Source: Ruditapes philippinarum (taxonomy: Eukaryota). From it: DNA of 64,000 bases. The notes beneath the pieces were generated by a model, which worked only from the letters and a program-made list of their open reading frames with translations, did no database searches and was not told the origin of the DNA. Made by a program: the position numbers and the translations under genes. This document shows, one piece after another, positions 1 through 52,414 of this stretch. Position 1 is the stretch's first letter, and each line of letters starts with the position of its first letter. Location: NCBI RefSeq assembly GCF_026571515.1, contig NW_026860464.1, positions 372,001 to 436,000 on the forward strand, in the 5' to 3' direction.

Positions 1-445
1 TTTCACTTTTTCATCATCGTATAGTTTACTTTTCACCATCGTTGTTTCGTTAATTCGACTTTTCAGCATTGCACTTTCGAGTTTTCATCATCGTGATTAC
101 ACTTTTTTACCATCGCACTTTCGAGTTTTCATCATCGTGGTTTCGACTTTATATCATCAAAGTCTCGTATTTTCATCATCGTACTGTCGATCATGAAATA
201 TCGTGGTTTGCTATTTTAAATTTTCACCATCGTCCTTTCAATTTGTCATCATAATCATCATATGCTTTACTTTTCAACATCGTTGTTTCGTTATTTAGAT
301 TTTCCACCATCGTTCCGAAATAAGGAATCCATGTTTGTGAAAGGTCGGAAGTGCGAAAGTGAAATAATATCAAGTTTTCACCAACGTGTTTTGTTATTTA
401 GACTTTTCTCAAGTGTACTATCGACTTAAGAAATAAGGGAGCACC
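1..445. repeat. Degenerate ~22-bp tandem array (core TTTTCAYCATCGT), truncated by window start; probably the interior/end of a non-autonomous DNA element
   Basis: TTTTCA(C/T)CATCG(T/C)-like cores recur roughly every 22 bp from 1 to ~310, with degenerate copies to ~420. Confidence 0.7.
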
Positions 446-3720: not shown

Positions 3721-3867
3721 CTTTTGATTATTCGTCAACATCAACATTATATTTTGTACTTATGCCGATAATTTTAAAGATAACTGGTTTATCATTTTAG
3801 AACAAACGACTTCCCATGTATCAGTTGCTACATAAATCATAGATTAATTTGTTATTGATGTTGCACT

Positions 3868-4314
3868 TGTCGTAAACACAATGAAAATAAGAGAAACACT
3901 TTTTCGTTTCTACTTTTAATATTCAATTTTTAAACACTTTTTTATCTTTACTTTTACAATCCACGAGTTTTTATCTCTCTAACACTTTTTTACTATTAAA
4001 TGTATTTTACATCAAAATCCTTTTCATATCTCAATCACTTTCCTTCTTACAATACTTTTTAACACACACTAAACTTCTGTGACCATGCGGTCGCTATTTA
4101 TACAATGTTATCATGAAAAGCACGTGAATATGTTTGTGGCGGGAATTCAATGGCGGGAAAGTTAAAAGGAGCAATGTAATATAATAAGACTTTGGCGCGA
4201 AAACCAAAGGAGCAATAAACGGAGTATCAACATACAATAAAGTTTAAAGGAGCATATTCAAAGAACAGCATTTAAATACCAAGTATTCATTACATAATCG
4301 CTATGTTAGCGACG
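3868..4314 (-). repeat. 3' LTR of BEL/Pao element
   Basis: 447 bp, about 98% identical by eye to 10322-10768; ends ...TTTACGACA on minus strand; first base is C rather than T (CGTCGC). Confidence 0.96.
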
Positions 4315-4323
4315 CTCCCGCCA
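4315..4323 (-). other. Polypurine tract
   Basis: TGGCGGGAG directly abuts the 3' LTR on the minus strand. Confidence 0.75.
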
Positions 4324-4579
4324 TAGAAAATGAGCATACAATATTTATAGTAGAAAACACAATATGTATGTTTTTAAGAAAAATGATTAACTAGAGCTAA
4401 TTATTAAGATTTAGAAACATCTATTAACAATGCACATTGTTTAATGTCAAACAATTAAAGACTGTTTTCGTGTCTCTATTCGATTCAGGATGTATTGTTT
4501 AATGATTTAGAAACTAAACATATATTTATTTTATGAAATATCATCGTTATTTACATCATTGATTTTTTTTTTATAATTT

Positions 4580-7500
4580 TTACTTAAAATAGTTTTTAAT
4601 TTTTTGTTTTGCAATTTCCGCTGCCGTTCTGTTTGATACTTTATCTGGTTTCTTTTCACTTTTCTCACTGTTCGTATCCCCTTTGTCATCAATAAATGTG
4701 AGATTTTTATCACATTCAAGAAGATAAAGTAAGTTTAAAGGTCTGCCTATCAGTCTCTTCGGAGGTAGCTGTACTTTAGCAGATCGAATTTCTCCATCAT
4801 TACTAGTCACTAACTCCACAATGCGACCAATTTTCCAACTTCCTCTAGGTAAGTTTTCCTTTATTTGCACAACATCACCCATACTCGGTATTATTTTGGC
4901 ATTAATCCGTCCTGATTTTAATTGAGTCTGAAGGCGCTCTCTTAAACTCACAAGGTACTGATCACGCCAAATTTTCCAGAACTCATTCAGTAATCTTTGT
5001 CCTTTTTTCCAAATCTTTAACAGTTTTTCAGTTGAACTTTCGACAGGTAAATAGTTTTCATCACCATCGTCGTCTTCTAAGTCTGGTACACCGGTGTTTG
5101 GATTTAAAGTTAAAAAATGCCCAGGTGTCAAAGTGATGTTAGAAGATAAATCATTTTCTTCGTAAACTAAGGGTCTCGAATTAACAACGGTTTCCACTTC
5201 CTTGATAAGTGTTTGAAGTTGAATCATTGTAAGAAGTTTTCGTCCTAATGATTTTCTTAGTGCACTTTTAACTACCCCAACTAACCGTTCACAGAATCCC
5301 CGGAGCTAACTCAACAATGAAATTCCAACGAATGCCCTTCGAAGCTACGTATGACATTACTTCATTACTTTGCACTACGTTTTTCCATATATGATTTATG
5401 ACTTTACTTGCAAGTTTAAACTGAGCAGCGTTATCAGAAACAATCTCGATAGGAGTGTTTCTTTGTGAAATGAATCGTTGCAAGCACATCAGGAATTCTT
5501 CTGTACTTAAATCCTGAATCACTTCCAAATGAATAGCACGTGTTGTCATACACGAAAATAAACATATCCAGACTTTTCTATTACCATTTGATGTTTTAAT
5601 GTTCAAAGGTCCAAGATAATCTAATCCAGTTCGTGAAAATGCACTTGACTTTTGTACTCTTGAACTGGGAAGTGGGGCCATAACAGGCATTTTGTATGGG
5701 CCTCCATCGTAGCGGCGACACACATTACACTTATTTAATGCTGCTTTGACCGCTGAACGACCGCGAGTTATCCAATATGTTTGTCTTGTTCTGGATAGCG
5801 CATGTGATATTCCATAATGCATACACTCTTTATGTGCCCTTTGAATCACTAGTTCAGTAAACTTTTCTTTGTGAGGTAGAAGAATAGGTTGTCTTGCTCC
5901 TTCTGATAAGCAAGAGTTCCCTAAACGCCCAGTACAACGCAATAATCCATTGTTGTCGATAACCAGTCCAAGTTGTCTTTGTAGTCCGGACGGCTTTTTC
6001 TTTTGAATATTCTTATAGTCCTTATTATAAATATTCCTTTGAACATAAACTATCCACAAATTTTCAGCTTGTCGTAAGTCGTCACAAGTTAGATATTTTG
6101 CATCATCCTTTACATTTTTGAGTTTCCTAATGAACTTTAAGACAAGAGCTGTAACACGCAACAACTTTGTCAACGTTGAATATCTTTGAATGTCAATTCC
6201 ACAAGGTGGTACAATATCATGTTTTGTTTTGCTTTCATTTTCTTCGACATGCAATGAAACACATAGTTCTTTTTCATCTTTTTCTTGCTTTAATTCCATG
6301 TTAATAATATTGTCGTGATTTGTATTCCAGTTTCGTGGACTTTCACAACACCAAGTGGGACCGTTCCACTAAAAAGAATTGTCCTTTAAATCACTCACCG
6401 ACGAACCTCGAGTTGCACCGTCAGCTGGATTATCTTTTGTGTCTACATGAGCAATAATCACACAATTATTGTTTTTGATTTCTTTAACTCTATTTTTCAC
6501 AAATACGGGAAGTTGCTTTTTACTATTAATCCAGTCTAATGCTACCTGAGAGTCGGTCCAAAGGTATTCGTGAGATATTTCTATCATTAACTGTGTCTTC
6601 ACAAATTTCAAACACCTAACACCTATAAGCACTGCCATTAGCTCTAGTCTTGGAATAGTCATTTTCTTGACTGGAGCAAGACGTGTTTTGGCAAAGATCA
6701 AGTTTGATTTCACATAAGTTACATTTTCTTGCTGTAGATAGATTGCAGTGGCATAAGCCTTTGACGAAGCGTCACAAGAACAAAGCAAATTGTATTTTAC
6801 ATATTTGTCTTGAGAAACGATACTCAGGCGTATTTTGATGTCAGATAACAACCTTAGCTGATCGCTGATAAATGACCACTTATCGAGCACATGTTCGTCT
6901 GTTATCTTTGTATCCCAGTCGAAACCACTTTCCCACATTTCTTGAAGCAACATTTTTCCATGAAGAATGACTGGTGACACAAGACCCATGGGGTCAAATA
7001 CTGATGCTATTCCTTTCAGTACGATTCGTTTTGTCACTAATGAACGGTTTATATTCGAACATACAGATTTTACTGACAGAATATCTGATTTTATGTCCCA
7101 AACATGTCCTAGAACCTTAGTTTCAGTTTCAGTGGATCTGTCAACCTCTGGAATAAGACTGTTTACTTTTTCACTACTTGAACTCCACTCCCGAAGATTC
7201 ATTGAAGCGTCTTTAAACATGCTTTTCGCTTCTTTATACAAGTCTACAGCTTGTTCATCGCTGGATGCTCCGGTTATAATATTGTCAACATAAATGTCAT
7301 GTTTCAGCTGTTCTGATAGTTTAGTGTCATAAGCATTCAAATGAGCCTCAATCGTTGCACTCAGAAGAAAAGGGCTTGAAATAATCCCAAACGGTACTCT
7401 ACAGAAACGATAAATTTCGATGTTGTTTGGAAACAGTGATGGTCTTTTTGTGTCTTTAATCCAAAAGAATCTGGTTACATCGCGTTCTGAGTCTTGCAAA

Positions 7501-10151
7501 CCAACTTGAAGAAACGCCTTTTCGATGTCCGCAACCATTGCCACTCTATGTAAACGAAATCTCATAAGTAGCCCACACAAGTCCTTGAGTAAAACAGGAC
7601 CTCGAAAAAGACACTCATTCAAACTCTTTGATTCTGGTGATATTTTTGCCGACGCATCGTTAACAATCCTTAGCTTTGTTGTTGACTTTTGTGGCATGAT
7701 AACCGCATGATGAGGAATATAGTGATGCATATATTCCTTGCCTTTCCCCGAGTCTTGAACCTTCTCAATAACTCCTTTTGACCGTTGGTCTTTTATAACA
7801 TTGTTGTATTTTTCTAGCAGGTCAGGTTTGTTTTCTAGTCTTTTCAAACACGACTTAAGTCGTCCAATTGCAAGTCCTTTGTTTTCGGGTAAATCTGGAT
7901 TTTCTTCTTTCCATGGCCAGGTAACACTGTATCTACCATCCTGAAAGGTGAGTGTGCTTTTAAACTTTCTCATTGATAACTCATCATCATTCATTTTGTC
8001 TTTGTCACAAATGCCTATAACCTCTTTGTTCCTAAAATCCTCTAGATCTTGAATCGAGTTTTTACAAGAATCGATACCACAGAATATTCCTTTGTTTATA
8101 GTTGAATTGTTAACACTTCCGTGTGTGAGAATGAGCATGTTTGGTTCCTCTTTCTCTTTTAATTCTGAGTATGACCTTCCTGTTAGAATCCAACCGAGTT
8201 TAGAACACATCAGATACAATCCGGGCTGAACTTCAATCTTTTGTTGAAGTTCAATGTCTAGGTAATGATCATTTCCGATCAAAAGTTCTATTTGAGATGT
8301 TTCATTTTTGTCGGGAAACGTATCAGCTAGATCCAAATTTTCTGCAATATCTCTGAATTCTTTCAGGACTTGTTTATTCAGTGACTTTCTATGTATGCTT
8401 CCACTTATCACTGGTACAATGTTTGCTTTAAGACATAGCTTTTGTCCATTTCTTAACTTTAAATTGATGGAAGTCACGTGTGTCTTTATCACTCTAGCAT
8501 CTTTACTGCCAAATGGAAACACATGTAACTCTTCGACATACTGCTTCTTTAGTCTTAATTTGTCAGCTAGTGACTGTGTGATATATGTTCTCTGAGAGCC
8601 ACAGTCAAGAAGAATTCTTGTCTTGACACTTTCGTTAGATGTTGGGTTTTGAATATCAGTTAGCGCCGTCTGCATAAACACAGATTCTCCGTGAGACAAC
8701 ATAGCATTTTGTTCATTTTGCTCCATCGGTGAGATATTATTGATTTGCTCCGTTGCACTCATCTGTGATTCTTCTTGTGTTGTTTGTTTATATTTCTTAG
8801 GACACAGACTTCTATGATGTCTATTGAATTGATTACAGTACACACACTTTTTATTTGATTTGCATTCACGAATTCCATGACCATCCTTTAGGCAACGATA
8901 ACAACTATCTCTGATTCTGTTTTTCCGTTCTTCCAATGTTGCGAATCGAGTACACATGTCACTCCAATGATTCTCTGCACACTATCTACACACTGGCTTG
9001 TTATGAACAGTTTCATTGGCCACAAATGTGTCGGCACTGCTACGGAATTTCTGAAAATGATGTTGAATATGAAAATCTTTATTCCAAGTATTCGTTGGCA
9101 ATGCTCCGTCTTTCTTTATTCTCCTGTTCACTGAATTAAATTGACCTCCATGCACTCTATCACTCTTTCCTTTGTCAGACTTTTCACAAGCGGTAATGTA
9201 TTCTCGTAGGTGATCACGCAAACTGTCAACAGTCCACTCATTCTTTGCTCCTTTTATTATTTCCAGCTGCCGGAGCACATCCTCTGGCAGCTTTGTGCGA
9301 ATCATTGAAACAAAAACGTGTTGATTCACATTTTCCTTTAGTATCTCAAGACTGCGTAAGGTTTTTTCAACTTTATCCAAAAAAAATCGCAGGATTTCAA
9401 CCTTTGTAGTTGGTGAATGAACATTAAGCATTTCTTTGTAATGAAGATCAATAATCTCTTGTTTGTTGCCGTACCTCTCTCGTAGAATTCCGACTGCAAT
9501 AGAATAATTGTCGTTAGTACGCGCAAGTCCAGCTAATGCTCTCTTCGCTTCTCCGTCTAGTTTGCTTAGCAAATAATTAAACTTTTCTATGTTGGATAGT
9601 TTGGTGTTTCTGTGCACAATGGATTCAAAAGAGTCCCAAAATTCCCACCAGTTTATTTTGTTTCCGTAAAACATGTCCAAATCAAGTTTTGGTAATTTAA
9701 CTGCACTTGTATTTTTTCTGTCCGTTTGCATCTGCACCATCATTTGATGTTGCTGTTCAATTTGTGTCATCATCATCTTTTGCATTTGTTCTTGATATGT
9801 CTCTTTTTCTTTCTCATCATGTTTCAATGGTACAATTGACTCACAAAATTGGTCTAAATCAATGATACAATTTTCTACCTCGAAATTCAAATTGCAATCT
9901 TCATCTACAATATGTTGCAAATATTCTGAATCACTTTTAGTTAAACGTTCTGATAGTTTATCCATTTGACTCATCAATTTCTCAGAATAGGATTTCAATA
10001 GACTTTTACACCTTTGAACATCTTTTAAAAACTCAATATTTGACACTGCACTCACCTCACATTTCAGAAGGTCGTTTGCTTTTTGAAGCTCAGTTATCAC
10101 CACTTTTCTGTACTTCGTTCTCACTCCTTTCAATGAAGCAACAGTTGGCAT
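4580..10151 (-). pseudogene. BEL/Pao gag-pol polyprotein with two nonsense codons and one frameshift
   Basis: Starts MPTVASLK at 10151; Pao gag motif (KLPKLDLDMFYG..WWEFWDSF); three Zn knuckles; protease LLDCGSQRTY; RT DIEKAF/YVDN; RNase H CDAS/WTDS/DNPAD; integrase H..H..C..C, LDYLGP, SDNA. In-frame TAG at 8982-8984 (CR*CAENHWSDMC) and 6369-6371 (F*WNGP); small-deletion frameshift near 5300 (ELAP/GFCERLVG). Confidence 0.95.
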
Positions 10152-10296
10152 TTTGAATATATATTCAGGTTGCACAAACACAATTTTATCAGAACACTTA
10201 ATCGAGTAAAGAAATAATCCACTTTTGAAATGCACTAAACACCTTTTGTCACTTCTCAATTTTTATTTTCACTTCACACTTTACATCCACTTTCGT

Positions 10297-10314
10297 ATCC
10301 GGTTCGCGGGACCA
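10297..10314 (-). other. Primer-binding site, tRNA-Tyr-like
   Basis: TGGTCCCGCGAACCGGAT, 7 nt after the 5' LTR; resembles the complement of the tRNA-Tyr 3' end (TGGTCCTTCGAGCCGGA..) with mismatches. Confidence 0.75.
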
Positions 10315-10321
10315 TTTTCAT

Positions 10322-10768
10322 TGTCGTAAACACAATGAAAATAAGAGAAACACTTTTTCGTTTCTACTTTTAATATTCAATTTTTAAACACTTTTTTATC
10401 TTTACTTTTACAATCCACAAGTTTTTATCTCTCTAACACTTTTTTTACTATTAAATGTATTTTACATCAAAATCCTTTTCATATCTCAATCACTTTCCTT
10501 CTTACAATACTTTTTAACACACACTAAACTTCTGTGACCATGCGGTCGCTATTTATACAATGCTATCATGAAAAGCACGTGAATATGTTTGTGGCGGGAA
10601 TTGAGTGGCGGGAAAGTTAAAAGGAAGATGTAATATAATAAGACTTTGGCGCGAAAACCAAAGGAGCAATAAACGGAGTATCAACATACAATAAAGTTTA
10701 AAGGAGCATATTCAAAGAACAGCATTTAAATACCAAGTATTCATTACATAATCGCTATGTTAGCGACA
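10322..10768 (-). repeat. 5' LTR of BEL/Pao element
   Basis: TGTCGC...TTTACGACA on minus strand (TG..CA, TGTCG inverted termini), followed by PBS. Confidence 0.96.
10549..10656 (-). promoter_or_regulatory. Putative LTR U3 promoter: three E2F-type sites, E-box, TATA
   Basis: TTTGGCGCGAAA 10645-10656, TGGCGGGAA 10592 and 10606, CACGTG 10576-10581, TATAAATAG on minus strand 10557-10549; the same set is in the 3' LTR. Confidence 0.5.
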
Positions 10769-11075: not shown

Positions 11076-14000
11076 ATGGCTAAAGGCAAAGGTGGAGCTC
11101 TTGATTGCTGCGCGGCATGCGGAGCTGCAGGTAAGTTGTTTATTTTTAGATGTATCAATCTTAAAGCATTCTTTATAAATGCATTATGTAGATATTTTTT
11201 AATCTGTTTTTATATGTTTCAAATATTTAAACAAAATGTGTAACACCTCGCCTGTTTCCATTGATGCCATTGATATAAGCTTTCCATGTAGTTTTGGTGC
11301 AAGTTTCATAATTGTAACTAATTATTTATTAACCTACCAGTAGATAAATCTGAAATTCTTTTAATAATGCTCAGCATTGAAAGATCGTAACATTTATGAC
11401 AATAATAGAATAATGAACTTTCGAAGTCCTGTAATTCATTAAAAACTGTTTAATTTACAACGAGTTGTTTTATTTTTGTTCCAGCATGCTGTTGTTTCAT
11501 TGTGCTCATAGTTATTGCTTTAGCGGGTTTGGGCATAGCAAAGATTGTCATGGGTGAGTACATTGTTTATACTAACTACAAAACTATGATTACTTTTATG
11601 ATAACGTTGATAAATAAATAATTACTTAAGATAGATCACAATTAAGTAGTGATTATACAAATTTATTACAACGTTTTATATGAGACACATGTTAAACATC
11701 TTTCATTACTTGACGACCTTTATTCATAAATAATGTTATTCATAACATAACATAACATAAATTTATTGCATAAAACTCTTTTTCAAAGTTTATAGCAAGC
11801 ATTACATACAGGCAGGTACATGAAAACGTGTTTTCAGAAAAGAAAAAACAAGTTAATTAAATTGACTTATGAATACATAGTATTTTGCACATTTTAAGAA
11901 AGTTCAGTGTATTTTTTCTAACATGTCAAAATAAGAGCATACAGTATTATGGAGGTGTATGGACAAATTATGAAATTCTTATTCTATTGGCAAAATATAT
12001 ATATTTCGATAAATTACAAATATATTTTTTAGATGTGGCATTCATTAATTGATCAAATTTATGTATAGATGGCCAACGACAAAAATATTGCCGAAAATAT
12101 TTGGTTCTCAATTCGCGATATTTAGGACATACTAAAATAAAGTGGAATTCAGTCTCAACTTTTCTCATATTACATGATTTACAAAGCCGTTCTTCTCGTG
12201 CGATATTCTCGTAACGTCCGGTTTCTATAAGTAAACTGTGCGACGATGTTCTAAGTCTTGATAGTGCAACCCTATACTTGTTCTCTTTAATACAATCTAA
12301 ATATTGTTCTGTTTGAAAATTATGCTTAAATATACAGTAAGATTGAAGGCGTGGCGAATTATTTATGTCTGAGTACCAGCGTTGATAATATGTATCTAAT
12401 ATGCGTTGTTTTATCAACTGGAACGGTATATTATTCACATCCGTTTGTTGATTCCAGACATAGCTTAATCCATGTACATCTAAAATACTTTTCACTTGAG
12501 CAGCCCAATTAAGACCACGATACTCACGACCGCTATCAGCGTCAGCTTTTAAAAACGTATAGGTCTGCTTTATTAATGAAGAGTCCGCGTGCCTTAATAT
12601 TTTAATCCAATATTTAATTATGTTTATTTTTCTGAATACGGCTAGTGGTACGCGCCCGAGTTCTCCATAAAGTGCGGAAAGGTTTGTTGAGCGTTTCACA
12701 CATAATACGCGACGTAAGAATTTAGTATGTAACAGTTCTATGTCAGTCGCTTCATGCATACCCCATATTTCAGAGCCAAAATTTAGAATAGAACCAACCA
12801 AACTGTCAAATAAGCTTACTTTTTGTTTAATTGGTAACTCGATATTATTAAAGATGGTGAACAGGCTATATAATGCACGAGACGCATGCTGTGCAATACA
12901 TTTTTGACTGCGATACCAGTTTCCATTTTTAAATAATGTAATACCTAAATATTTAAATGACGTAACTACTTCTAAGGGTGTATCTTCAATATAAAAGTTA
13001 TGTTGAGAGTGACGTCCTCTTTCGAATATTAATATTTTAGTTTTTGTAGTGTTGATTGTTAGACCCCACTCCCTACAATACGTTACAAGATCATTTATCA
13101 TAGACTGTAATGCTTCCGGGGATGTAGCATAAAGTACTTGGTCATCAGCATACAATAATAAAAAGTATTTTACTTCGTTAATTGTAAATATATCATCAAT
13201 ATTTGTATTAATATTGTGTGTGACGTCATTTACGAAGTACATAAATAGCAGAGGGGAGCTCGGGTCCCCTTGTTTCAATCCGATGTTAGAGGTGAAGAAG
13301 TCTGATGATTCTGAATTGAACTTTACACAGGACTTAACAATAGTATACATTGCTTTTACGGCCCGTACAAATTTACTACTAACTTTTTCTGTTATAAGTT
13401 TTTGACATAAATATGTTCTATTAATTCTATCAAAACACAACATATAATCAACAAAACAGCAATAAAGTTTTTTACCCAAGTCTAAAACTTTACTTAATAC
13501 CGAATGTAGGACAAAAATACAATCAATGATTGACTTCCCCTTTTGGAATCCGAATTGATTTTTGTCAAGCGTATCGTATTTGTTCGACCATTGAGTTAAT
13601 CTATTTAAAAGCAACTGAGAGTAAATTTTTACAAGTACATTAATAAGACAAATGCCTCGATAATTCTTAGCATCATTTATGTCCCCTTTTTTAAAGATAG
13701 GAGTAATTATTCCTAAACCCCAAGAATTAGGATATTCACCACTGTTAAATATTCTGTTATATATTTTCAACAAAAGAGGTGAAATTAAATCATAGCTCGA
13801 CTTAAACAATTCACTTGGAAGATTGTCTAACCCCGGCATTTTATTATTGTTTTGGTGGAAAACTGCGGATCTAAGTTCTTGTTCTGTAAAATAAATATCT
13901 AGGTCAGCGTCGGTCTGGTCGTTCTGCGGAATATAGTCGTCATTTTCACTACTCGGCGGTTCCTCACCAAACATGCCTTTAAAATGGTTAAACAGACTAT

Positions 14001-17000
14001 CGATATTAAGATTATCGGCCTTAAGTGGTGCCTTTTTAAAAGATTTTCGAATCTTTTTCCAAAACTGTCTAGGTTGAGATTTAGCTAAATTGCTAACTTT
14101 CTGGCCCTGTCGAATTTTGTATATATTGTATGCTTTCTTCTTCACTTTATTATACTTAGTCCTAGCACGCGTGAACAATACCCTGTTTTCATTTATTTTA
14201 TTACGATTAAAATTATTACGTGCGCGTTTAAACTCATTTTTTGCGGTAGCGCAATTAGCGTTAAACCAATCTTTGCTGGTTTTCCTTGTGTTTATGGTTA
14301 CATGTTTTGTGTAAGATTTACCGAAGACTGAATGTGCACTATCAGATATTAATGTCGTAAATTCGTTTACTACGTCATCAATTGGTGCGTGAGGTGCGCG
14401 TTCGATAATGTGATTAAATGAATCTTGTTTAATAGTGAGCTGTGCACGAAAAAGATGTACTTTTTTATCATCCCATACTATTTTAGAAGTCGTGGGAGCT
14501 GGGTTAACCGGTGAGTTCGTGCACGTGCTAACGTTGTCGTCTGCTAAGCGTAGCGAAAATTTAAACTCGATCGGCGCATGATCTGAGTGTTGATTAAATT
14601 CTGAAATAATGAACTGAGACACAATTTCAAAGTCTGAAAAATTTAATAATAAATAATCTACCGTGCTTAGACCGCGGTGAGAACAAAAAGTAAAATTTCC
14701 GGGTTCGTTATTTAAACGGCCATTTGCAATTAGTAACCCAGTAGATTGACATAGTTCTATAAGTCGTCTACCGTTGTGATCAATAACTGTATCTTTATTC
14801 ACTCGAGGTGGAATAGAGACGTTTGTATTTAATAAATCTAAGTTTTCATCTAAATATTTGTCAAAAACAATGAAATCTTCTGCATTTGAAACTCTACTAT
14901 TAAGGTCCCCAGTTATGAAAACTTTACCTAAATTATTATACTTCAAAATATCAGTTTCAATTTGATCAAAAAAGTCAAAATCAGAGGCTTTAAAAACCTT
15001 AGAGTCACTTGGTGGAAAATATGTAAAACAAATATAAATATCATCTCCATCAACAAACAAATCAGAAGAAATTTTCAACCAAATAAAACCTTTTTGATTT
15101 TGTTCAATAATAGTAATAAAACGTTTATACTTGTCCTTAATATAAACTGATAAACCTCCGCTGAATCTACCTTTAGATATGTTTTTCTGTTTATTTCCAG
15201 ATAAATGTACACTTTTATAACCTTGAATGTCAATGTCAAGTGCATTTTTGGCAGAAGTCCAAGTTTCGCTTAGCAGAACTAAGCTAAAAGTATTTATATA
15301 ATCCAAAAAATCTGTATCTATAAGTTTCCGCACTAAACCATTGACATTCCATGAGAGAACACTTAATGTTAACTCTTCCTGACAACCCTAATCACTTGTA
15401 GCACTATCTGAATTACCAGGTCTGTACAACTGACCATCAATGAATAGCTGCTTTCCCACGAATTTGACGGGTTTACCTGCTTTTTTAGCATCATTTATAG
15501 GACCGTAAAGTGATTTCCTCGCTTCACGAATTGCTTTCGGCAACTGGATTCCGATACCCCATCCTTTGGCTTTCAGCTCTCCCGACTTATCGTAAGATCG
15601 CAGACGGACAGCTTCACGTTCAGAGAAATAACGGTATGTGACTAAAATGGGCCGTGGTTTGCTACCTCGTTTTGGTCCAACTCGTCTTACACTTTCAAAC
15701 AAGTGAGTATTAGCGTCCGGCATGTCCAGTATATCGGTACATACTGTTTTTATAATAGCGCCACAGTCCTCATGTTCGTTTTCTGCGAGACCGTAGTATA
15801 GTAAATTCACTTTCATAGATCTAGCATCCATATCATCGAATCTACATTCCAGTTTTTCTCTTTCTTCTTTAAGTTTTTGTGCACTAGAATCCAACAAATC
15901 ACATTTTTTTCGTAGTTTTTTTATTTCATTACACGAGTTTTTGATATCCTCCTTAGCAGATTCATACGCACTGGATTGAAACGCGCACGCATTTTCCGTT
16001 TCCGTAACACGTGACTCTAGTGATTTAAATCTATTCTCCATTTTACTCATTTTTGTGTTTATTTCTTTCACAGTATTTTCAATAAAATCCATATTTTTCA
16101 GTTTAACTTTTAGTTGTTTAACTTCTGCTAAAATCTCTGTCGCCCAAAGAGGGGTGGGCATCGGCGGCATAGAGGAGAATCCAAATGGTGGTGAATTGCT
16201 CTGAATAAAGGCTGGTTGAGACATAGAGTAAGGGCTCATAGAGCCTGGTTGGCTAAAAGACATACCTGTGTATTGTGTAAAAGGCGATGTCATTGATGTG
16301 TTAGTTCTGTTTACCTTAGCACGTTTTTTCTTCCTACATTGCACTTGTTTATTTAGTCCACGCTCAAGGCTATTATCGACTGTGTTGAATATGGTTTCCC
16401 TAATATGGTAAAAGTCCGTGCACACGTCCACGTTGTCATTCAATGGCGAATTCGCTGGTCGTTTTTTATCGTTCAATTTTACATTTATTTCCGAACTGGT
16501 TGAACAAATATCCTCTTCTGACATTAGCACTTGTATTCATAATTTATTTTATCCAAAAATTTTGATTAAAAACGTGTATTTAAATACTTTTTAAATCCAT
16601 TTTTGAGAGATCCGAAAAAACACGTTTTCACCCGCCAGCTGTTATAACGGTAAAAAAAAAAATTCATACGACACAGTGAAACTGAATCAATGTATAATGA
16701 GCCTTGCCGATAGAGTCCCCTTACCTGTCCCTCAGTTACCGCCACTTTTGTTTTCTTTCTACCCTAATGTCCTGCGATTCCGATGTTCATCAATGTGCAT
16801 ATAAATTTTGCCCTAATACATTTAAGTAAAGCGCAGATAATAATTACATGCACTAAATATTATTGCAGAAAGCTTTTACGGCAAGTAAACATATGATGAC
16901 ATGGCTGACAACGCCATATATTTTCGCGTCATTTGTTTATTAGTTACAAGTTTTGGCTTTTGAATGTTCGCAATATTTTGTCGTCATCAAAATAGAGAAA

Positions 17001-46750: not shown

Positions 46751-48297
46751 GACTTAGAAACACAGCTGCACTTTAATAGTCTAATTAGACATGCATTCAG
46801 TGTAAAAAATAAAATCATGGCAAAAGATTATACAAGAAGTTTCTATTGTTATTTCAAACATGCACATTTTAATTAAATGCCATCCCTAATATAATGTAAT
46901 TTCGGCATATTTCGCAATTTTCATATTAAATAAGGAGCAATGCAACACTTAACAGGCCATCTCTAAAGCCTCATGTTCAGAAAAAGTACTTAGTAATTTT
47001 TTATCAACTCACTTCAATTAGTAAAGTTGTTGACCCGGAATTTGACTAAGAAGCTTGGGATTTGCGGAGTTACTTCTTAAAATGACCAATGTAAACAATT
47101 CACATGAATTGCTATTTTCTTAACTCTAATTATTGTTCTAATGAAATAATTCATTTCTAAATGATTTGATTGAAAAAATACGTTTTTATTTATTTATTTA
47201 TTTATTTATTTATGGTATATTTTTTATTAACATAGCCCTTTTAAATGACTCATCGCTACTGAAATATCGCCCTAGCGCAAATATAATTATATTGATAGCA
47301 TTTTATGACTGCCCCACCCCGCAAAAGTCGTACGAATACGAATATGGAGTCTAAAAATTGCATGGTGGTCCAATATTTACCCATAGTGCAATCACTGACA
47401 ATTTCATAAATAGAGAAAGTCATACTTTGACATTTTTCCGCAAATTCAAAACTTCTGACACGTTTTTAGCAGCTATCATTTTTCGATATTTAACATGGAG
47501 GATCACAAATGCGTACAAAGCTATCACATTCTTTTAAAAATGCTGCTCATTTCCTACTCACAAACAAGAAAAGAAAAACAATCAAACAAACATATCAGAA
47601 GATTTCAAAACACCGTGTTAGAAATAATATTTCACCAGGGCCAAATAAACAATACGTCTAATTAATAATAGATGAAAAATTATTGATGTTAAGGTGATAC
47701 TTCATTCGGAACAGGTTGCCGACTACCCATCATCATTACTAGAAGATTAACGTAACAATTGACGAAAAATTCAAATTTAGTTATCTTATTCATAAGGATT
47801 ACAGGCCTAAATTAAAATCATTTGGTTTGCCTCTGACTTTTGCCACGTAACTATATTGAAAGCCTGTGGTCAATCCGTCACGCTTGCTTTGGAATGAACT
47901 TGTTATACAGTCGCTACACTGAGATAATACATAGCCACTGGTTGACCTGGTTTGCACAAAAGAACACGTGCTTATGTTTGTGAGCAGTAGACCTATATCA
48001 ATGAATGGAAAAGGTGTGGCTAAATGTTCCGCTACGAAAAACCGGAACGGTCCAAGAGTCCATATCTTTCAACTATTATAGCGTATATAGTTACCACTTG
48101 TTGATTGTGATTAAAGTTTTATTTCATGGATACAAAATTAACAAAAAGATTGAGATTTTACATCTATATATAAGTATGTGAACTTATCTTTTATTACATT
48201 TTTCTAATATTCTCTTTCAAGTTTGAGACAACGGAGCTAAGTCCGTATGTCATATTTGTGATATCATTTCAAGAGTTGTGTTTCTTCTATCATCCAA

Positions 48298-48386
48298 TAG
48301 ATAAATACAGAATCCCTAAAGAAAGCCCAACACGGCAAAATTGAAAATGTTGCAGGCTCGGTTTGATTGAGCCTGTTCATGGACGG
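48298..48386. other. 89-bp templated insertion, an inverted copy of 50354-50442, flanked by a 13-bp direct repeat
   Basis: TTCTATCATCCAA at 48285-48297 and 48387-48399; 86/89 identity to the reverse complement of 50354-50442. Confidence 0.85.
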
Positions 48387-48571
48387 TTCTATCATCCAAC
48401 ATTCGTTTTCATTTACTGTAAAGCAAACGCAATAACAATGCTTTGATAACAAAAACCTTTATTTATATATTTTTTAAGTAAAATACTTAGTAATACAACG
48501 CTAAACACATAGGCACAGAAGATCAAATAGTTTTTTAAGAAATTGTATTGTGCCGGCCAATGTCGTCTTTA

Positions 48572-50768
48572 AGCTACAGTCTCACTGACATCCCGGCAGA
48601 GCCCCGGTAGACGTCCGGGTGATCCGAGAACGACGGGGCACGACCGGGAACAGCCAGGGTACATCCGTAACTCTGCCGGCAACGTGCGGGATGATCAGGG
48701 AACATTCGGCATTCGACCCCGGATGGAATAAAATATTCAATATCACCGGGGTGGTCCGGGATGATCCGGGAGGTACATAGCTTTGCCGGCTTCATCCTTA
48801 ATTAGCTCTGCCGGGAACGACCGGGGTTACACCGGGGAAGCACCGTAGCTCTGTCGGCACTAACCGTTTATGATCCGGGGTATGATATAGCCGGTAGAGC
48901 TACGGCGTTGATGATCCGGATTATGATATAGCCGGTAGAGCTACGGTAGAGCCCTTGTGAATGCCGACAGAGCCCCGGTGAATGCCGGCAGAGTCCCGAA
49001 GGATGCCGGTAGATCCCCGGAGGATGACGATGGAGCTATGGTTGATCCCGGTAGAGCCCCGGCAAATCCCAGTTCATTTAAAGCTACCGTCACACTAACA
49101 TCCCGGCAGAGCCCCGGTAGACGTCCGGGGTGATCAGGGAACGACCGTGGAACCACCGGAGTACATCCGTAACTCTGCCGGAAACGTCCGGGATGATCTG
49201 GGAACATCCGGCATTCAACCCCGGATGGAATAAAATATTTAGTATCACCGGGGTGGTCCGGGAAGTACTTAGCTTTGCCGGCTTCATCCTTAGCTCTGCC
49301 TTGAACGACCGGGGTTACACCGGGGAAGCACCGTAGCTCTGCCGGGGATGATCCGGGGCATAATATAACCTGTAGAGCTACGGTAGAGCCCCGTTGAATG
49401 CTGGCAGAGCCCCGGTGAAGGCCGACAGAGCCCCGGAGGATGCCGCCAGAGCCATGGAAGATGAAGAGGGAGCTACAGTTGAGCCCGGTAGAGTCCAAGC
49501 AAAGCCCGGTTCATTTAAAAAGAATCACGACAATTTGCGATGATTTCACTTTAAAGCCCTTCCCATTTCCCTTTTATCCAGTCTTGCATAAGGATTTTCA
49601 TAAGTCATCATGAATTACTGTTTTGGATCAATAGATATAATATTAAATAAATTTTATGTATCAATGTAATCATTCTTGCGGGTTTTCAATCCACCGGGGT
49701 TCTACCGGGACTCTGCTGGATCGCCCTGGGCTCTGCCGGGGCTCTGCCTGGATCGACCGGGGCTCTGACTGAGTCAACCGGGGCTCTTCTGGCGTCATCC
49801 AGGAACGACCGGGGAAGCACCGGCATAAACCGTAGCTTCACCTGGGCTCTGCCTTGATGATCCGGAGCGCATCCTGGGTGGTTAGTCGGGAATTGCCATA
49901 GTGCTGACCGCAACAACAATTTCACCCCGGATCGTCCAAGATCATCCCGGTAACTTACCGGGGTGTTCCTGCGCTCTGCCGGGAGTAAGTGAGACCGCAG
50001 CTTAAAAAGAATCTCAACAATTGGCGATGATTGCAATAATTTGTATTAAAACCCTTCCAATTTCCCTTCTATCCAGTCTTTCATAAGGATTTTTCAGAAA
50101 ATCATCATGAATTACTATTCTTGAACAATAGATATTATATCAAAAACAAAATATGTATCAATGTTATCATTTTCGCGCGTTTTCATGGAATGGAATGGCA
50201 CTACTGTGTCACATTGAAGGTTCCATGATAACCGCCGTATGAACACATCTGCGGATGTTTCTAAATTCCAAATTTTACCATTTCATGTTTAAGTGTTGAA
50301 TTCTGCTTAAGCCGGTGCTAGGGGGCGTGGACGGTAACATGCACTTTCCAGTACTGTCCGTGAACAGGCTCAATCAAACCGAGCCTGCAACATTTTCAAT
50401 TTTGCCGTGTTGGGCTTTCTTTAGGGATTCTGAATTTATCTATTTCAATCCACCGGGGTTCTACCGTGGCTCTGCCTGGATCGTCCTGGGCTCTGCCTGG
50501 ATCGACCGGGGCTCTGCCTAGGTCAACCGGGGCTTTTTCGGCGTCAACCGGGAACGACCGGGGAAGGACAGGCACGAACCGTATCTTCACCTGGGCTCTG
50601 CCTTGATCCGGAGCGCATCCTGGGTGGTTAGTCGGGAATTGCCATAGTGCTGACCGCAACAATAATTTCACCCCGGATCGTCCCTGATCATCCCGGTAAC
50701 TTACCGGTAATCCCGGTAACTTACCGGCATGGTCAAGGGCTCTGCCGAGAGTAAGTGAAACCGCGGCT
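48572..50768. mobile_element. Non-autonomous PIF/Harbinger-type element, family H2, outer copy
   Basis: Imperfect TIR AGCTACAGTCTCACT..CCCGGCAGAGC / GCTCTGCCG..AGTGAAACCGCGGCT; TSD TTA both sides; CCCGG/CCGGG-rich subtermini. Confidence 0.85.
49082..50002. mobile_element. Non-autonomous PIF/Harbinger-type element, family H2, inner copy
   Basis: TIR AGCTACCGTCACACT.. / ..AGTGAGACCGCAGCT; TSD TAA (49079-49081, 50003-50005). Confidence 0.88.
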
Positions 50769-52414
50769 TTACGTACAGTCGACTCCGCCCAGAACAAACT
50801 CGAATCGTTCGTTACTTCCGAGGTTAACTTAATGCTTGTGTGGGCAAATTTGTCATCGAAAAGACATAACTTACCTGTGCAATCACTTGATTAAATAATT
50901 ATCAGATAGCGGTATTTTGTACGGTACTGATCTTTACTGGAGCGCATGACGATATTTCAATTATAAATAGTTTGTTTAACCGAGGAAATTAACGTGTTTT
51001 TCGCTGTTTAGACTTGAAAAATGGTTTGCTATAGCGGAAAGAGTACGTATTAAGCGATGTGTTTTAATATAACCTAAAAACGAATCGGCCGGGGATTTCC
51101 AGATTTAGTTTTCTATTAACGAGTATTCATTATAAGCGAGTCCGTAATAAGTGGAGTCGACGGTATTATACAAACTAAAATCTACATAAGTAAAAAAAAT
51201 AAACAGATCATAGAGCGGTTCTATAACGAAAGGAAAAGAAGGACTTAATAGAAAAGAAAAAACAACGCGTGAGAGATTCGCTCATCAAATGCATTTTGAA
51301 AGTTCGTTCCAAATGGATTCCGTTTTCTTCTTAAGCGAAATACCTCTATGTTCTTGTCATTGATGTATTGGGCTGTCTATCTAGTGTTCTATTTCGTTTA
51401 AATGTCATACGATTTTTTGTCACTTTATATGAAGGTTTCTGTCTTATATTCATTTAAAGACCGATATTTTAAAATATTTTGTTGCTCGGTTTTATAACAT
51501 TGTGTATGAAAGAAACATGTTCTGATTTAAAGGTACATTAGGTCTCAGAAATTCATATATCTTTTATTCTTCAGAAATGTCATAATGTTAAAATAATGAA
51601 TTAAGATCATGTTAGATGTTTAACAAATCAATGCAATATAGTTCAATTATAGTAAAATAGTATAATAAACTCTTACGTTTGTACGTTTGTCAAATTGCAA
51701 CATTTAATATCTGTTTAATATATCATCCTTTTAATTCTTGTTTTATCTCAATGTTTATTAACTTATTGACATTCTTTCTGACTTTCATCTCTTCCGACTT
51801 TGTATAAACTTATGCGCCCTTAAACAACAAAGGTTACGATCGATACACTTACATTTAAGATATTGTTTTAACTTTTTACTGAAACACAAATCATGCAATG
51901 TTTTCAAACAATCAAATTTAAAAGAATTTCTAATTTTATTTATTTACATGATTCCATTAAGCTTTCAGCAGTCTGTCAACAATATTACGTTTTTTTGACA
52001 GCACTTTACTTAAGAAAAGGACGGATCGTGATAAGATGTTTAAAGTATGAAACACTGATACCTTAATGGTATCTCGGGGGAACGTCAATTGTCTACCATC
52101 GTAAAAATTGTAATAAACGTAAAAGGGTCTTCCACTCTAGACTCTAGTGATGAGCCGTTTTTGAAGTAAACTGTCATTTTGTTTTCATTTTTCTTTCTTA
52201 TTTTTATTCATAAAACCAATTGATCATTCTTCCCATTAGAATATTGTGTGCTAGGCATAAAGTAATACATCTTTTTGATGCTTTGAAACACTGTAATTAA
52301 ATATAACGGTTCTTGATTTGTATTTGTAAAGTTTATGTTTGGAATTTATATCTGAGAAAATTAAAAAGAAAGATAGAGAGCATAGCGACGTCATTTGCTG
52401 CAAAGACACTTGAA

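Follow-up and report, generated by a model that had tools for sequence, protein, structure and literature searches.

The way in which long interspersed nuclear elements (LINEs) obtain the protein of their second open reading frame (ORF2p) from a bicistronic RNA is only partly understood; those studied so far rely on reinitiation. Passages of PMC5972666 describe a 63-nt spacer and an ORF2 AUG in human LINE-1 (L1), and an overlapping UAAUG stop-start with downstream structure in SART1. Readthrough is a route little described for LINEs, which a passage of PMC5405496 has already suggested for those of Paramecium. In Moloney murine leukaemia virus (MoMLV), the gag-pol context is given in the relevant part of PMC13517186 as UAG GGR NGU CAG, with G1, G2, G5, U6, C7 and A8 of the spacer being functionally important. 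Here, we analysed 64,000 nt of Ruditapes philippinarum (NCBI RefSeq assembly GCF_026571515.1, contig NW_026860464.1, positions 372,001 to 436,000 of the forward strand; hereafter the window), which carries on its minus strand a LINE whose ORF1 and ORF2 share one frame and are separated by a single TAG. Judged from comparative sequence evidence, low-level programmed readthrough of this UAG probably yields a fusion of ORF1p with endonuclease (EN) and reverse transcriptase (RT).

The element is a retrotransposon lacking long terminal repeats (non-LTR) and having an apurinic/apyrimidinic endonuclease (APE), as seen from its ORF2 domains, dispersed copies, 5' truncation and tandem-repeat tail; no long direct repeat flanking it, and hence no LTR, was found. 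It is full-length at about 4.9 kb (11738..16651, minus strand), its ends being set by two near copies (L263 and L264) that share 96-98% identity with it and terminate at window positions 16648-16651 and 11736-11741. A 5' untranslated region of about 127 nt (16525..16651, minus strand) extends from the common 5' end to the ORF1 ATG. At the 3' end, the sequence and the near copies define AATAAA followed by a (TTATG)4 tail (11741..11767, minus strand), and the same combination of AATAAA and short tandem repeats closes several other full-length families. The family has six copies on separate contigs, one of them without the 5' end. The 7-mer TATGAAT, resembling the tail unit, stands at both element ends (11738-11744 and 16662-16668, minus strand) and, read by eye, is a possible target-site duplication. 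The tail and the C-terminal motif described below resemble those of the RTEX clade, a provisional placement. Labels and motifs searched for in the supplement of PMC11203168 gave no match.

From stop to stop, ORF1 (16536..15388) and ORF2 (15387..11968) adjoin in one frame on the minus strand. ORF1 encodes 378 aa from an ATG at 16524 (15391..16524, minus strand). Profile, model and fold searches indicate that it belongs to the LINE-1-like ORF1p class, with a coiled coil (~16137-15817), an L1-type RNA-recognition motif (~15807-15547) and a C-terminal domain (~15546-15421) followed by a short low-confidence tail, all on the minus strand. A profile of 46 ORF1s matched human L1 ORF1p (2yko, E 2.4e-10), the AlphaFold2 model reached a predicted local distance difference test score of 94.8 with low values at the last residues only, and the top 11 Foldseek matches were all L1 ORF1p. 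ORF2 encodes 1139 aa and ends in TAA (11968..15387, minus strand). It comprises an APE-type EN (~15357-14578; PF03372, E 4e-5, 23.9 bits and thus just under the curated cut-off of 24.5), an RT (~13692-12934; PF00078, E 4.5e-37) and a C-terminal Cys/His motif read from the translation (~12183-12127), all on the minus strand. Among solved proteins, human L1 ORF2p is the nearest to it (E 1.6e-23), and its best PDB matches are L1 ORF2p and R2. Matches in the ESM Atlas were unnamed eukaryotic clusters only, and scans of prokaryote genomes and viral contigs found no relatives.

The single in-frame TAG lies at 15388..15390 (minus strand), and the first EN motif, SWNVNG (15337..15354, minus strand), begins 12 codons past it. 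No ATG precedes this motif in ORF2, where the first in-frame Met is residue 472. The initial annotation had quoted this junction, and the sequence bears out its reading of one frame, a single TAG, SWNVNG 12 codons on and a potential ORF1-EN-RT length of 1518 aa (378+1+1139). Gene callers cut such ORF2s short, since 20 of the 22 closest database proteins begin after the first EN motif.

In L265 (G000:C6517), a deletion derivative of the window family, both ends and the junction are retained, but about 3 kb of ORF2 are missing along with an in-frame 417-nt part of ORF1 that spans the coiled coil; this copy is possibly a member of a non-autonomous sub-family. The ORF1 deletion is present also as a contig in run X1, which we guess to be RNA. 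A joint at 15763>16181 in X1 was rejected as a splice because the same deletion exists in this genomic copy.

To avoid bias, the junction was surveyed with the endonuclease alone as query against the 1.41-Gb genome, and 125 distinct loci among the 150 matches listed were read upstream and clustered at 85% DNA identity. Of the 36 resulting clusters, 35 were readable; in their majority form the motif is preceded by an in-frame stop at a distance of 9-14 codons (33 TAG and 2 TAA). The 36th was one frameshifted copy. Counted by locus, 107 of the 125 had TAG and 4 had TAA in register, and 14 were disrupted by indels or 5' truncation. A second query, which brought in sister groups (70 of 150 matches read, each cluster represented by a copy with TAG in register), added 29 clusters: in 27 a TAG precedes the motif by 10-13 codons, and the other 2 consist of degraded copies only. 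A third, distant query (50 of 150 matches read) returned 27 clusters whose EN identity was 26-32%. Here the ORF1 C-terminal domain was required to be in frame up to the stop opening ORF2, a criterion that favours in-frame cases, and 14 of the 27 clusters were readable, with 13 TAG and 1 TAA in frame 14-110 codons before the motif. Among the other 13, 7 have a stop with a fourth codon rich in purines, though ORF1 could not be traced, and 6 were unreadable; no intact contrary layout occurred among them.

In total, all 76 readable families, down to 26% EN identity, have a single in-frame stop (73 TAG and 3 TAA), and none has TGA or a sense codon at the junction, 16 further clusters being unreadable. 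The stop is thus not a private nonsense mutation, as the initial annotation had allowed for: TAG stands in all six copies of the window family, and across the families TAG, the frame and the G at +4 are conserved in 73, 76 and 61 of 76, respectively. Metagenome data yielded 32 loci, 22 of which cover the EN start. Ten of these have the same junction with ORF1 in frame (8 TAG and 2 TAA), 3 are frameshifted and 9 are distant without an ORF1 match. The ten represent other families, as their DNA identity to the nearest family in this genome is about 66-71%. Three metagenome loci (L177, L180 and L181) with another EN type have a stop 49-63 codons upstream and no ORF1 match, so the pipeline does not return the pattern every time. 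An intact AUG-started LINE clade was sought as a negative control, and the two distant queries gave the same clade and a distant group with the same junction. These sequence comparisons indicate that the junction is real, ancient and clade-wide.

Some other layouts were seen. In a distant metagenome LINE (L186) with an open upstream frame, the stop has a type II context (TGA-CGG) and lies 12 codons from the motif, with EN in frame and no Met in the gap. Three further loci (L182, L183 and L187) have TGA or TAG 22-25 codons before the motif, with EN in frame and no Met in the gap. These four sit on metagenome contigs of 54-69% GC, and LINEs may have acquired in-frame junctions repeatedly. In one locus of the genome (L289, G000:C9657), a motif-like TAG, with GGA as the fourth codon, precedes the EN motif by 402 codons of open frame, giving ORF2 a long N-terminal extension. 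In the family formed by L290-L292, EN is preceded by 147 to >500 stop-free codons that are low-complexity, rich in Asn repeats and without an ORF1 match.

The ORF2 terminators of 12 full-length copies are mixed (6 TAA, 4 TAG and 2 TGA). Compared with these, the 73 TAGs in 76 junctions suggest that the identity of the junction stop is held by selection. TAG dominance, and no other observation, speaks for a host amber suppressor tRNA or an altered code reading TAG, or for a nonsense mutation shared by dead copies. However, TAG behaves as an ordinary stop here, because it terminates 4 of the 12 ORF2s and all 12 run for more than 1100 codons without an internal stop. A shared mutation is contradicted by the occurrence of the stop in families that are 26-60% identical in protein and have saturated synonymous sites. 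A pattern search with one amber anticodon arm, a narrow test, gave 5 matches against 12 for the control, none of them a tRNA. This explanation is largely refuted, and we give it almost no credence.

The stop is followed by a conserved context from +4 to +18 (15373..15387, minus strand), with G at +4, GUC at +8..10 (15383-15381) and GRRR at +13..16 (15378-15375) in the window element. Among the 76 families, G occupies +4 in 61 and +13 in 65, and purines occupy +5 in 73 and +14, +15 and +16 in 74, 73 and 70, respectively. The full GRRR is found in 57 of the 76 families versus 2.7% of downstream codon starts. Its offset from the stop is constant while the distance from stop to EN runs from 9 to 110 codons, Glu and Gly codons interchange within it, and GAG is preferred to GAA, all of which tie GRRR to the stop and to the RNA. 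The initial annotation had proposed a check for constraint on synonymous sites after the stop. Such constraint is present close to the stop, where third-position G in codons +4 and +5 was observed 35 and 37 times versus 14.2 and 10.6 expected from ORF2 codon usage (62 families), but it does not extend further into EN, where synonymous sites are near random expectation. Plain inheritance therefore fails to explain the motif. GTC at +8..10 occurs in 25 of the 35 first-search families versus 12.4 expected given the amino acids, with Cys, Ser and Gly codons sharing NGT there. On the EN tree, a short alignment with many forks open, GTC characterizes the part of the clade that includes the window element, and the TAA variants of the tree fall there too; TAA had at least three origins and has become fixed in intact families. 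Upstream of the stop, A at -2 (44 of 62 families) fits the 5' adenines noted in a passage of PMC3159437. Taken together, these patterns indicate that the post-stop context is selected at the RNA level.

A stop followed by G and purines might instead be removed from the RNA. TAG|G fits a 3' splice acceptor, for which the purine-rich run could act as an enhancer, and UAG is a preferred ADAR triplet, which editing would turn into UIG (Trp). The G at +4 in 61 families and the GAR-rich run downstream are as RNA processing would have them. Yet T makes up only 0.22 of the 17 nt upstream, so that no pyrimidine tract is present, and comparison of copies with their family representatives in 62 families found no copy broken at TAG|G, the 5' breaks lying 15, 17, 20, 23, 33, 42 and 44 nt from the stop. 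RNA processing is also opposed by the lack of a duplex over the stop beyond the cross-family control and by the repeated origin and fixation of TAA. In addition, an X1 contig covering 14651-15764 is unspliced, and none of its 11 differences falls at the stop, which is weak evidence as contigs drop rare forms. Removal of the stop by RNA processing is accordingly rated very improbable. Runs X22 and X23 were left unused as an RNA test, being unstranded, with about 60% of reads running into unlike sequence, loose ends at GATC and a junction depth of about 3. They are labelled RNA-Seq yet have chimeric GATC ends as in Hi-C DNA libraries, and are likely mislabelled.

The main rival to readthrough is AUG-independent termination-reinitiation, in which ORF1p would be released at UAG and the ribosome, held by the purine-rich context, would restart in frame at or just after the stop to make free ORF2p. 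UAG-G is a context of efficient termination, and structure is neither needed for such a restart nor found. Moreover, the stop lies about where gene callers start ORF2 in distant relatives (such starts being not necessarily ATG). Precedents are the AUG-independent translation of human L1 ORF2 described in a passage of PMC11485995, which also counts against readthrough, and the coupled reinitiation of SART1 (PMC5972666, same passages as above). Reinitiation accounts neither for the prevalence of UAG (73 of 76 families, with no UGA in any) nor for a frame retained over gaps of 9-110 codons. The lack of an ATG at the junction, another claim of the initial annotation, holds for all 62 closer families (first search and sister groups), none of which has an in-frame ATG between stop and motif or a SART1-type overlapping or adjacent stop-AUG; it does not hold for 2 of the 14 distant families, which have an in-frame Met within long gaps, in favour of reinitiation. 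Across 643 stop-to-motif codons of the 62 families, no ATG was gained versus 7.5 expected at the ORF2-wide rate, an argument weakened by the scarcity of Met in the EN N-termini of distant relatives as well. Met depletion in the EN N-terminus was dropped as support for readthrough for this reason (0.018-0.023 of aliphatic residues in those relatives). Near-cognate starts are likewise sparse, with in-frame CTG, GTG, TTG or ACG in the gap of only 9 of 35 families, and an out-of-frame ATG in the gap of 24 of 62 families (ATG within the S-W codons excluded) would trap a scanning reinitiating subunit. On balance, reinitiation is regarded as unlikely.

Readthrough is favoured because it accounts for the retained frame, the missing start codon, the selection on stop identity and the context fixed relative to the stop. 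In the proposed mechanism, most ribosomes would terminate at UAG and release free ORF1p, and a small fraction would decode UAG by a near-cognate tRNA to give an ORF1-linker-EN-RT fusion of 1518 aa. The bases at +4..+11 would occupy the mRNA entry channel with GRRR at its mouth, where the bases themselves or a purine-binding factor may tune termination; a passage of PMC13517186 places 11-12 nt after the A-site codon inside this channel. Through its coiled coil the fusion would join ORF1p trimers on the same RNA, so that many ORF1p would accompany each enzyme; the fusion, its tethering to ORF1p and the stoichiometry are all predicted features. A low rate may suffice, as basal readthrough of premature L1 ORF2 stops is the explanation given for low-level Alu mobilisation by the authors of PMC4176336, in the passage concerned. 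A broader proposal, to which we assign slightly less than an even chance, is that a structure-free signal outside the three described types (UAG-G plus GRRR at +13..16 at the ribosome entry mouth) drives an RT-ORF1 fusion in a widespread LINE lineage, one sub-clade of which independently converged on the exact gammaretroviral spacer.

Several observations weigh against readthrough. The type III contexts treated in PMC13517186 are reported there, in a passage on this point, to be weak without downstream structure, and no such structure was found here. The hairpin proposed in the initial annotation can be drawn, but its folding does not surpass that of shuffles (z 0.06 for 15330-15390; 1.52, 1.85 and 0.13 for three other segments), and averaged over families z was about 0 or positive for all segments. 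RNAalifold returned no pairs from 41 aligned junctions, and the duplex energy of the post-stop segment with its own element was no better than across families at short or long range. A stimulatory pseudoknot or long-range structure near +12 left no synonymous-site peak or helix signal, in methods that do not model pseudoknots directly. The gammaretrovirus-like context claimed at the outset stands for the window's sub-clade, at spacer positions G1, G2, G5, U6, C7 and A8, but GUC is not clade-wide, GTC being found in only 1 of 27 sister families. No natural long ORF1-ORF2 single-ORF fusion was found (0 of 76 families, in a weak search), though such flux is common at other readthrough sites. Caution also comes from Candida albicans Tca2, whose in-frame stop junction alone gave no readthrough in a yeast reporter according to the abstract of PMC2194720. 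Finally, the families are related, so that very small P values overstate their independence.

If correct, readthrough of this junction would be a retrovirus-like solution in a non-LTR lineage, present in at least 76 families of one genome, with the enzyme physically linked to the ORF1p coat. For stop-codon context, these families amount to a natural mutagenesis experiment at +4, +8..10 and +13..16. If ORF2 is not made by readthrough, the junction would represent an AUG-free, frame-fixed restart with a defined signal. We found no published account of the UAG junction or its motif in animal LINEs in a search outside which most subscription papers and Repbase/Dfam entries lay, so that a prior mention is possible. 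The matched passages of PMC4559204, PMC5753468 and PMC3905857 contain nothing on LINE readthrough.

Elsewhere, the window contains an LTR retrotransposon on the minus strand (3867-10767), whose LTRs (~3867-4313 and ~10321-10767) are 98-100% identical and whose coding region is interrupted by in-frame stops and by a shift of frame. By the motifs in its translation, it is of the BEL/Pao type. A degenerate 22-nt tandem array occupies 1-450, and a stretch at 48001-50890 is GC-rich (48% versus about 33%) and includes, near 48941-50890, two open frames of low complexity.

Among described systems, MoMLV, of Beier and Grimm type III, resembles the LINE junction in that one UAG separates a structural ORF from an enzyme ORF in the same frame, with UAA tolerated in both. 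The spacer positions also agree in the 35 window-group families (G 26, G 19/A 14, G 29, T 28, C 29 and A 20/G 10). In contrast to MoMLV, the element here is non-LTR and has no protease after the stop, no pseudoknot or stem-loop at +12 was detected in the LINE families, and the clade-wide signal is GRRR at +13..16, GUC being limited to one sub-clade. As to type III features, an in-frame UAG-G is present (TAG-G in the window, G at +4 in 61 of 76 families) and the spacer GUC is present in the window element and 25 of 35 families, with 1 of 27 sisters; the junction is nevertheless not classed as type III, since tests for the downstream structure that defines such sites found none. Tca2 of C. albicans likewise has a single in-frame stop needing bypass, but is an LTR element with a gag-UGA-pol arrangement. 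Group 3 LINEs of Paramecium tetraurelia are also non-LTR with ORF1 and ORF2 in one frame, and readthrough was suggested for them from consensus sequences in the passage of PMC5405496 cited above. Those described there are ciliate-specific with a zinc-finger ORF1, and neither a context motif nor a test is given for them in that passage, whereas the present clade has an L1-type ORF1, UAG and a defined context across 76 families. With human L1, which has an ORF1p trimer and uses unconventional termination-reinitiation, the clade shares the ORF1p fold, an APE-RT ORF2 and a bicistronic RNA. Unlike human L1 and SART1, however, it joins its two ORFs without spacer, overlap or AUG.
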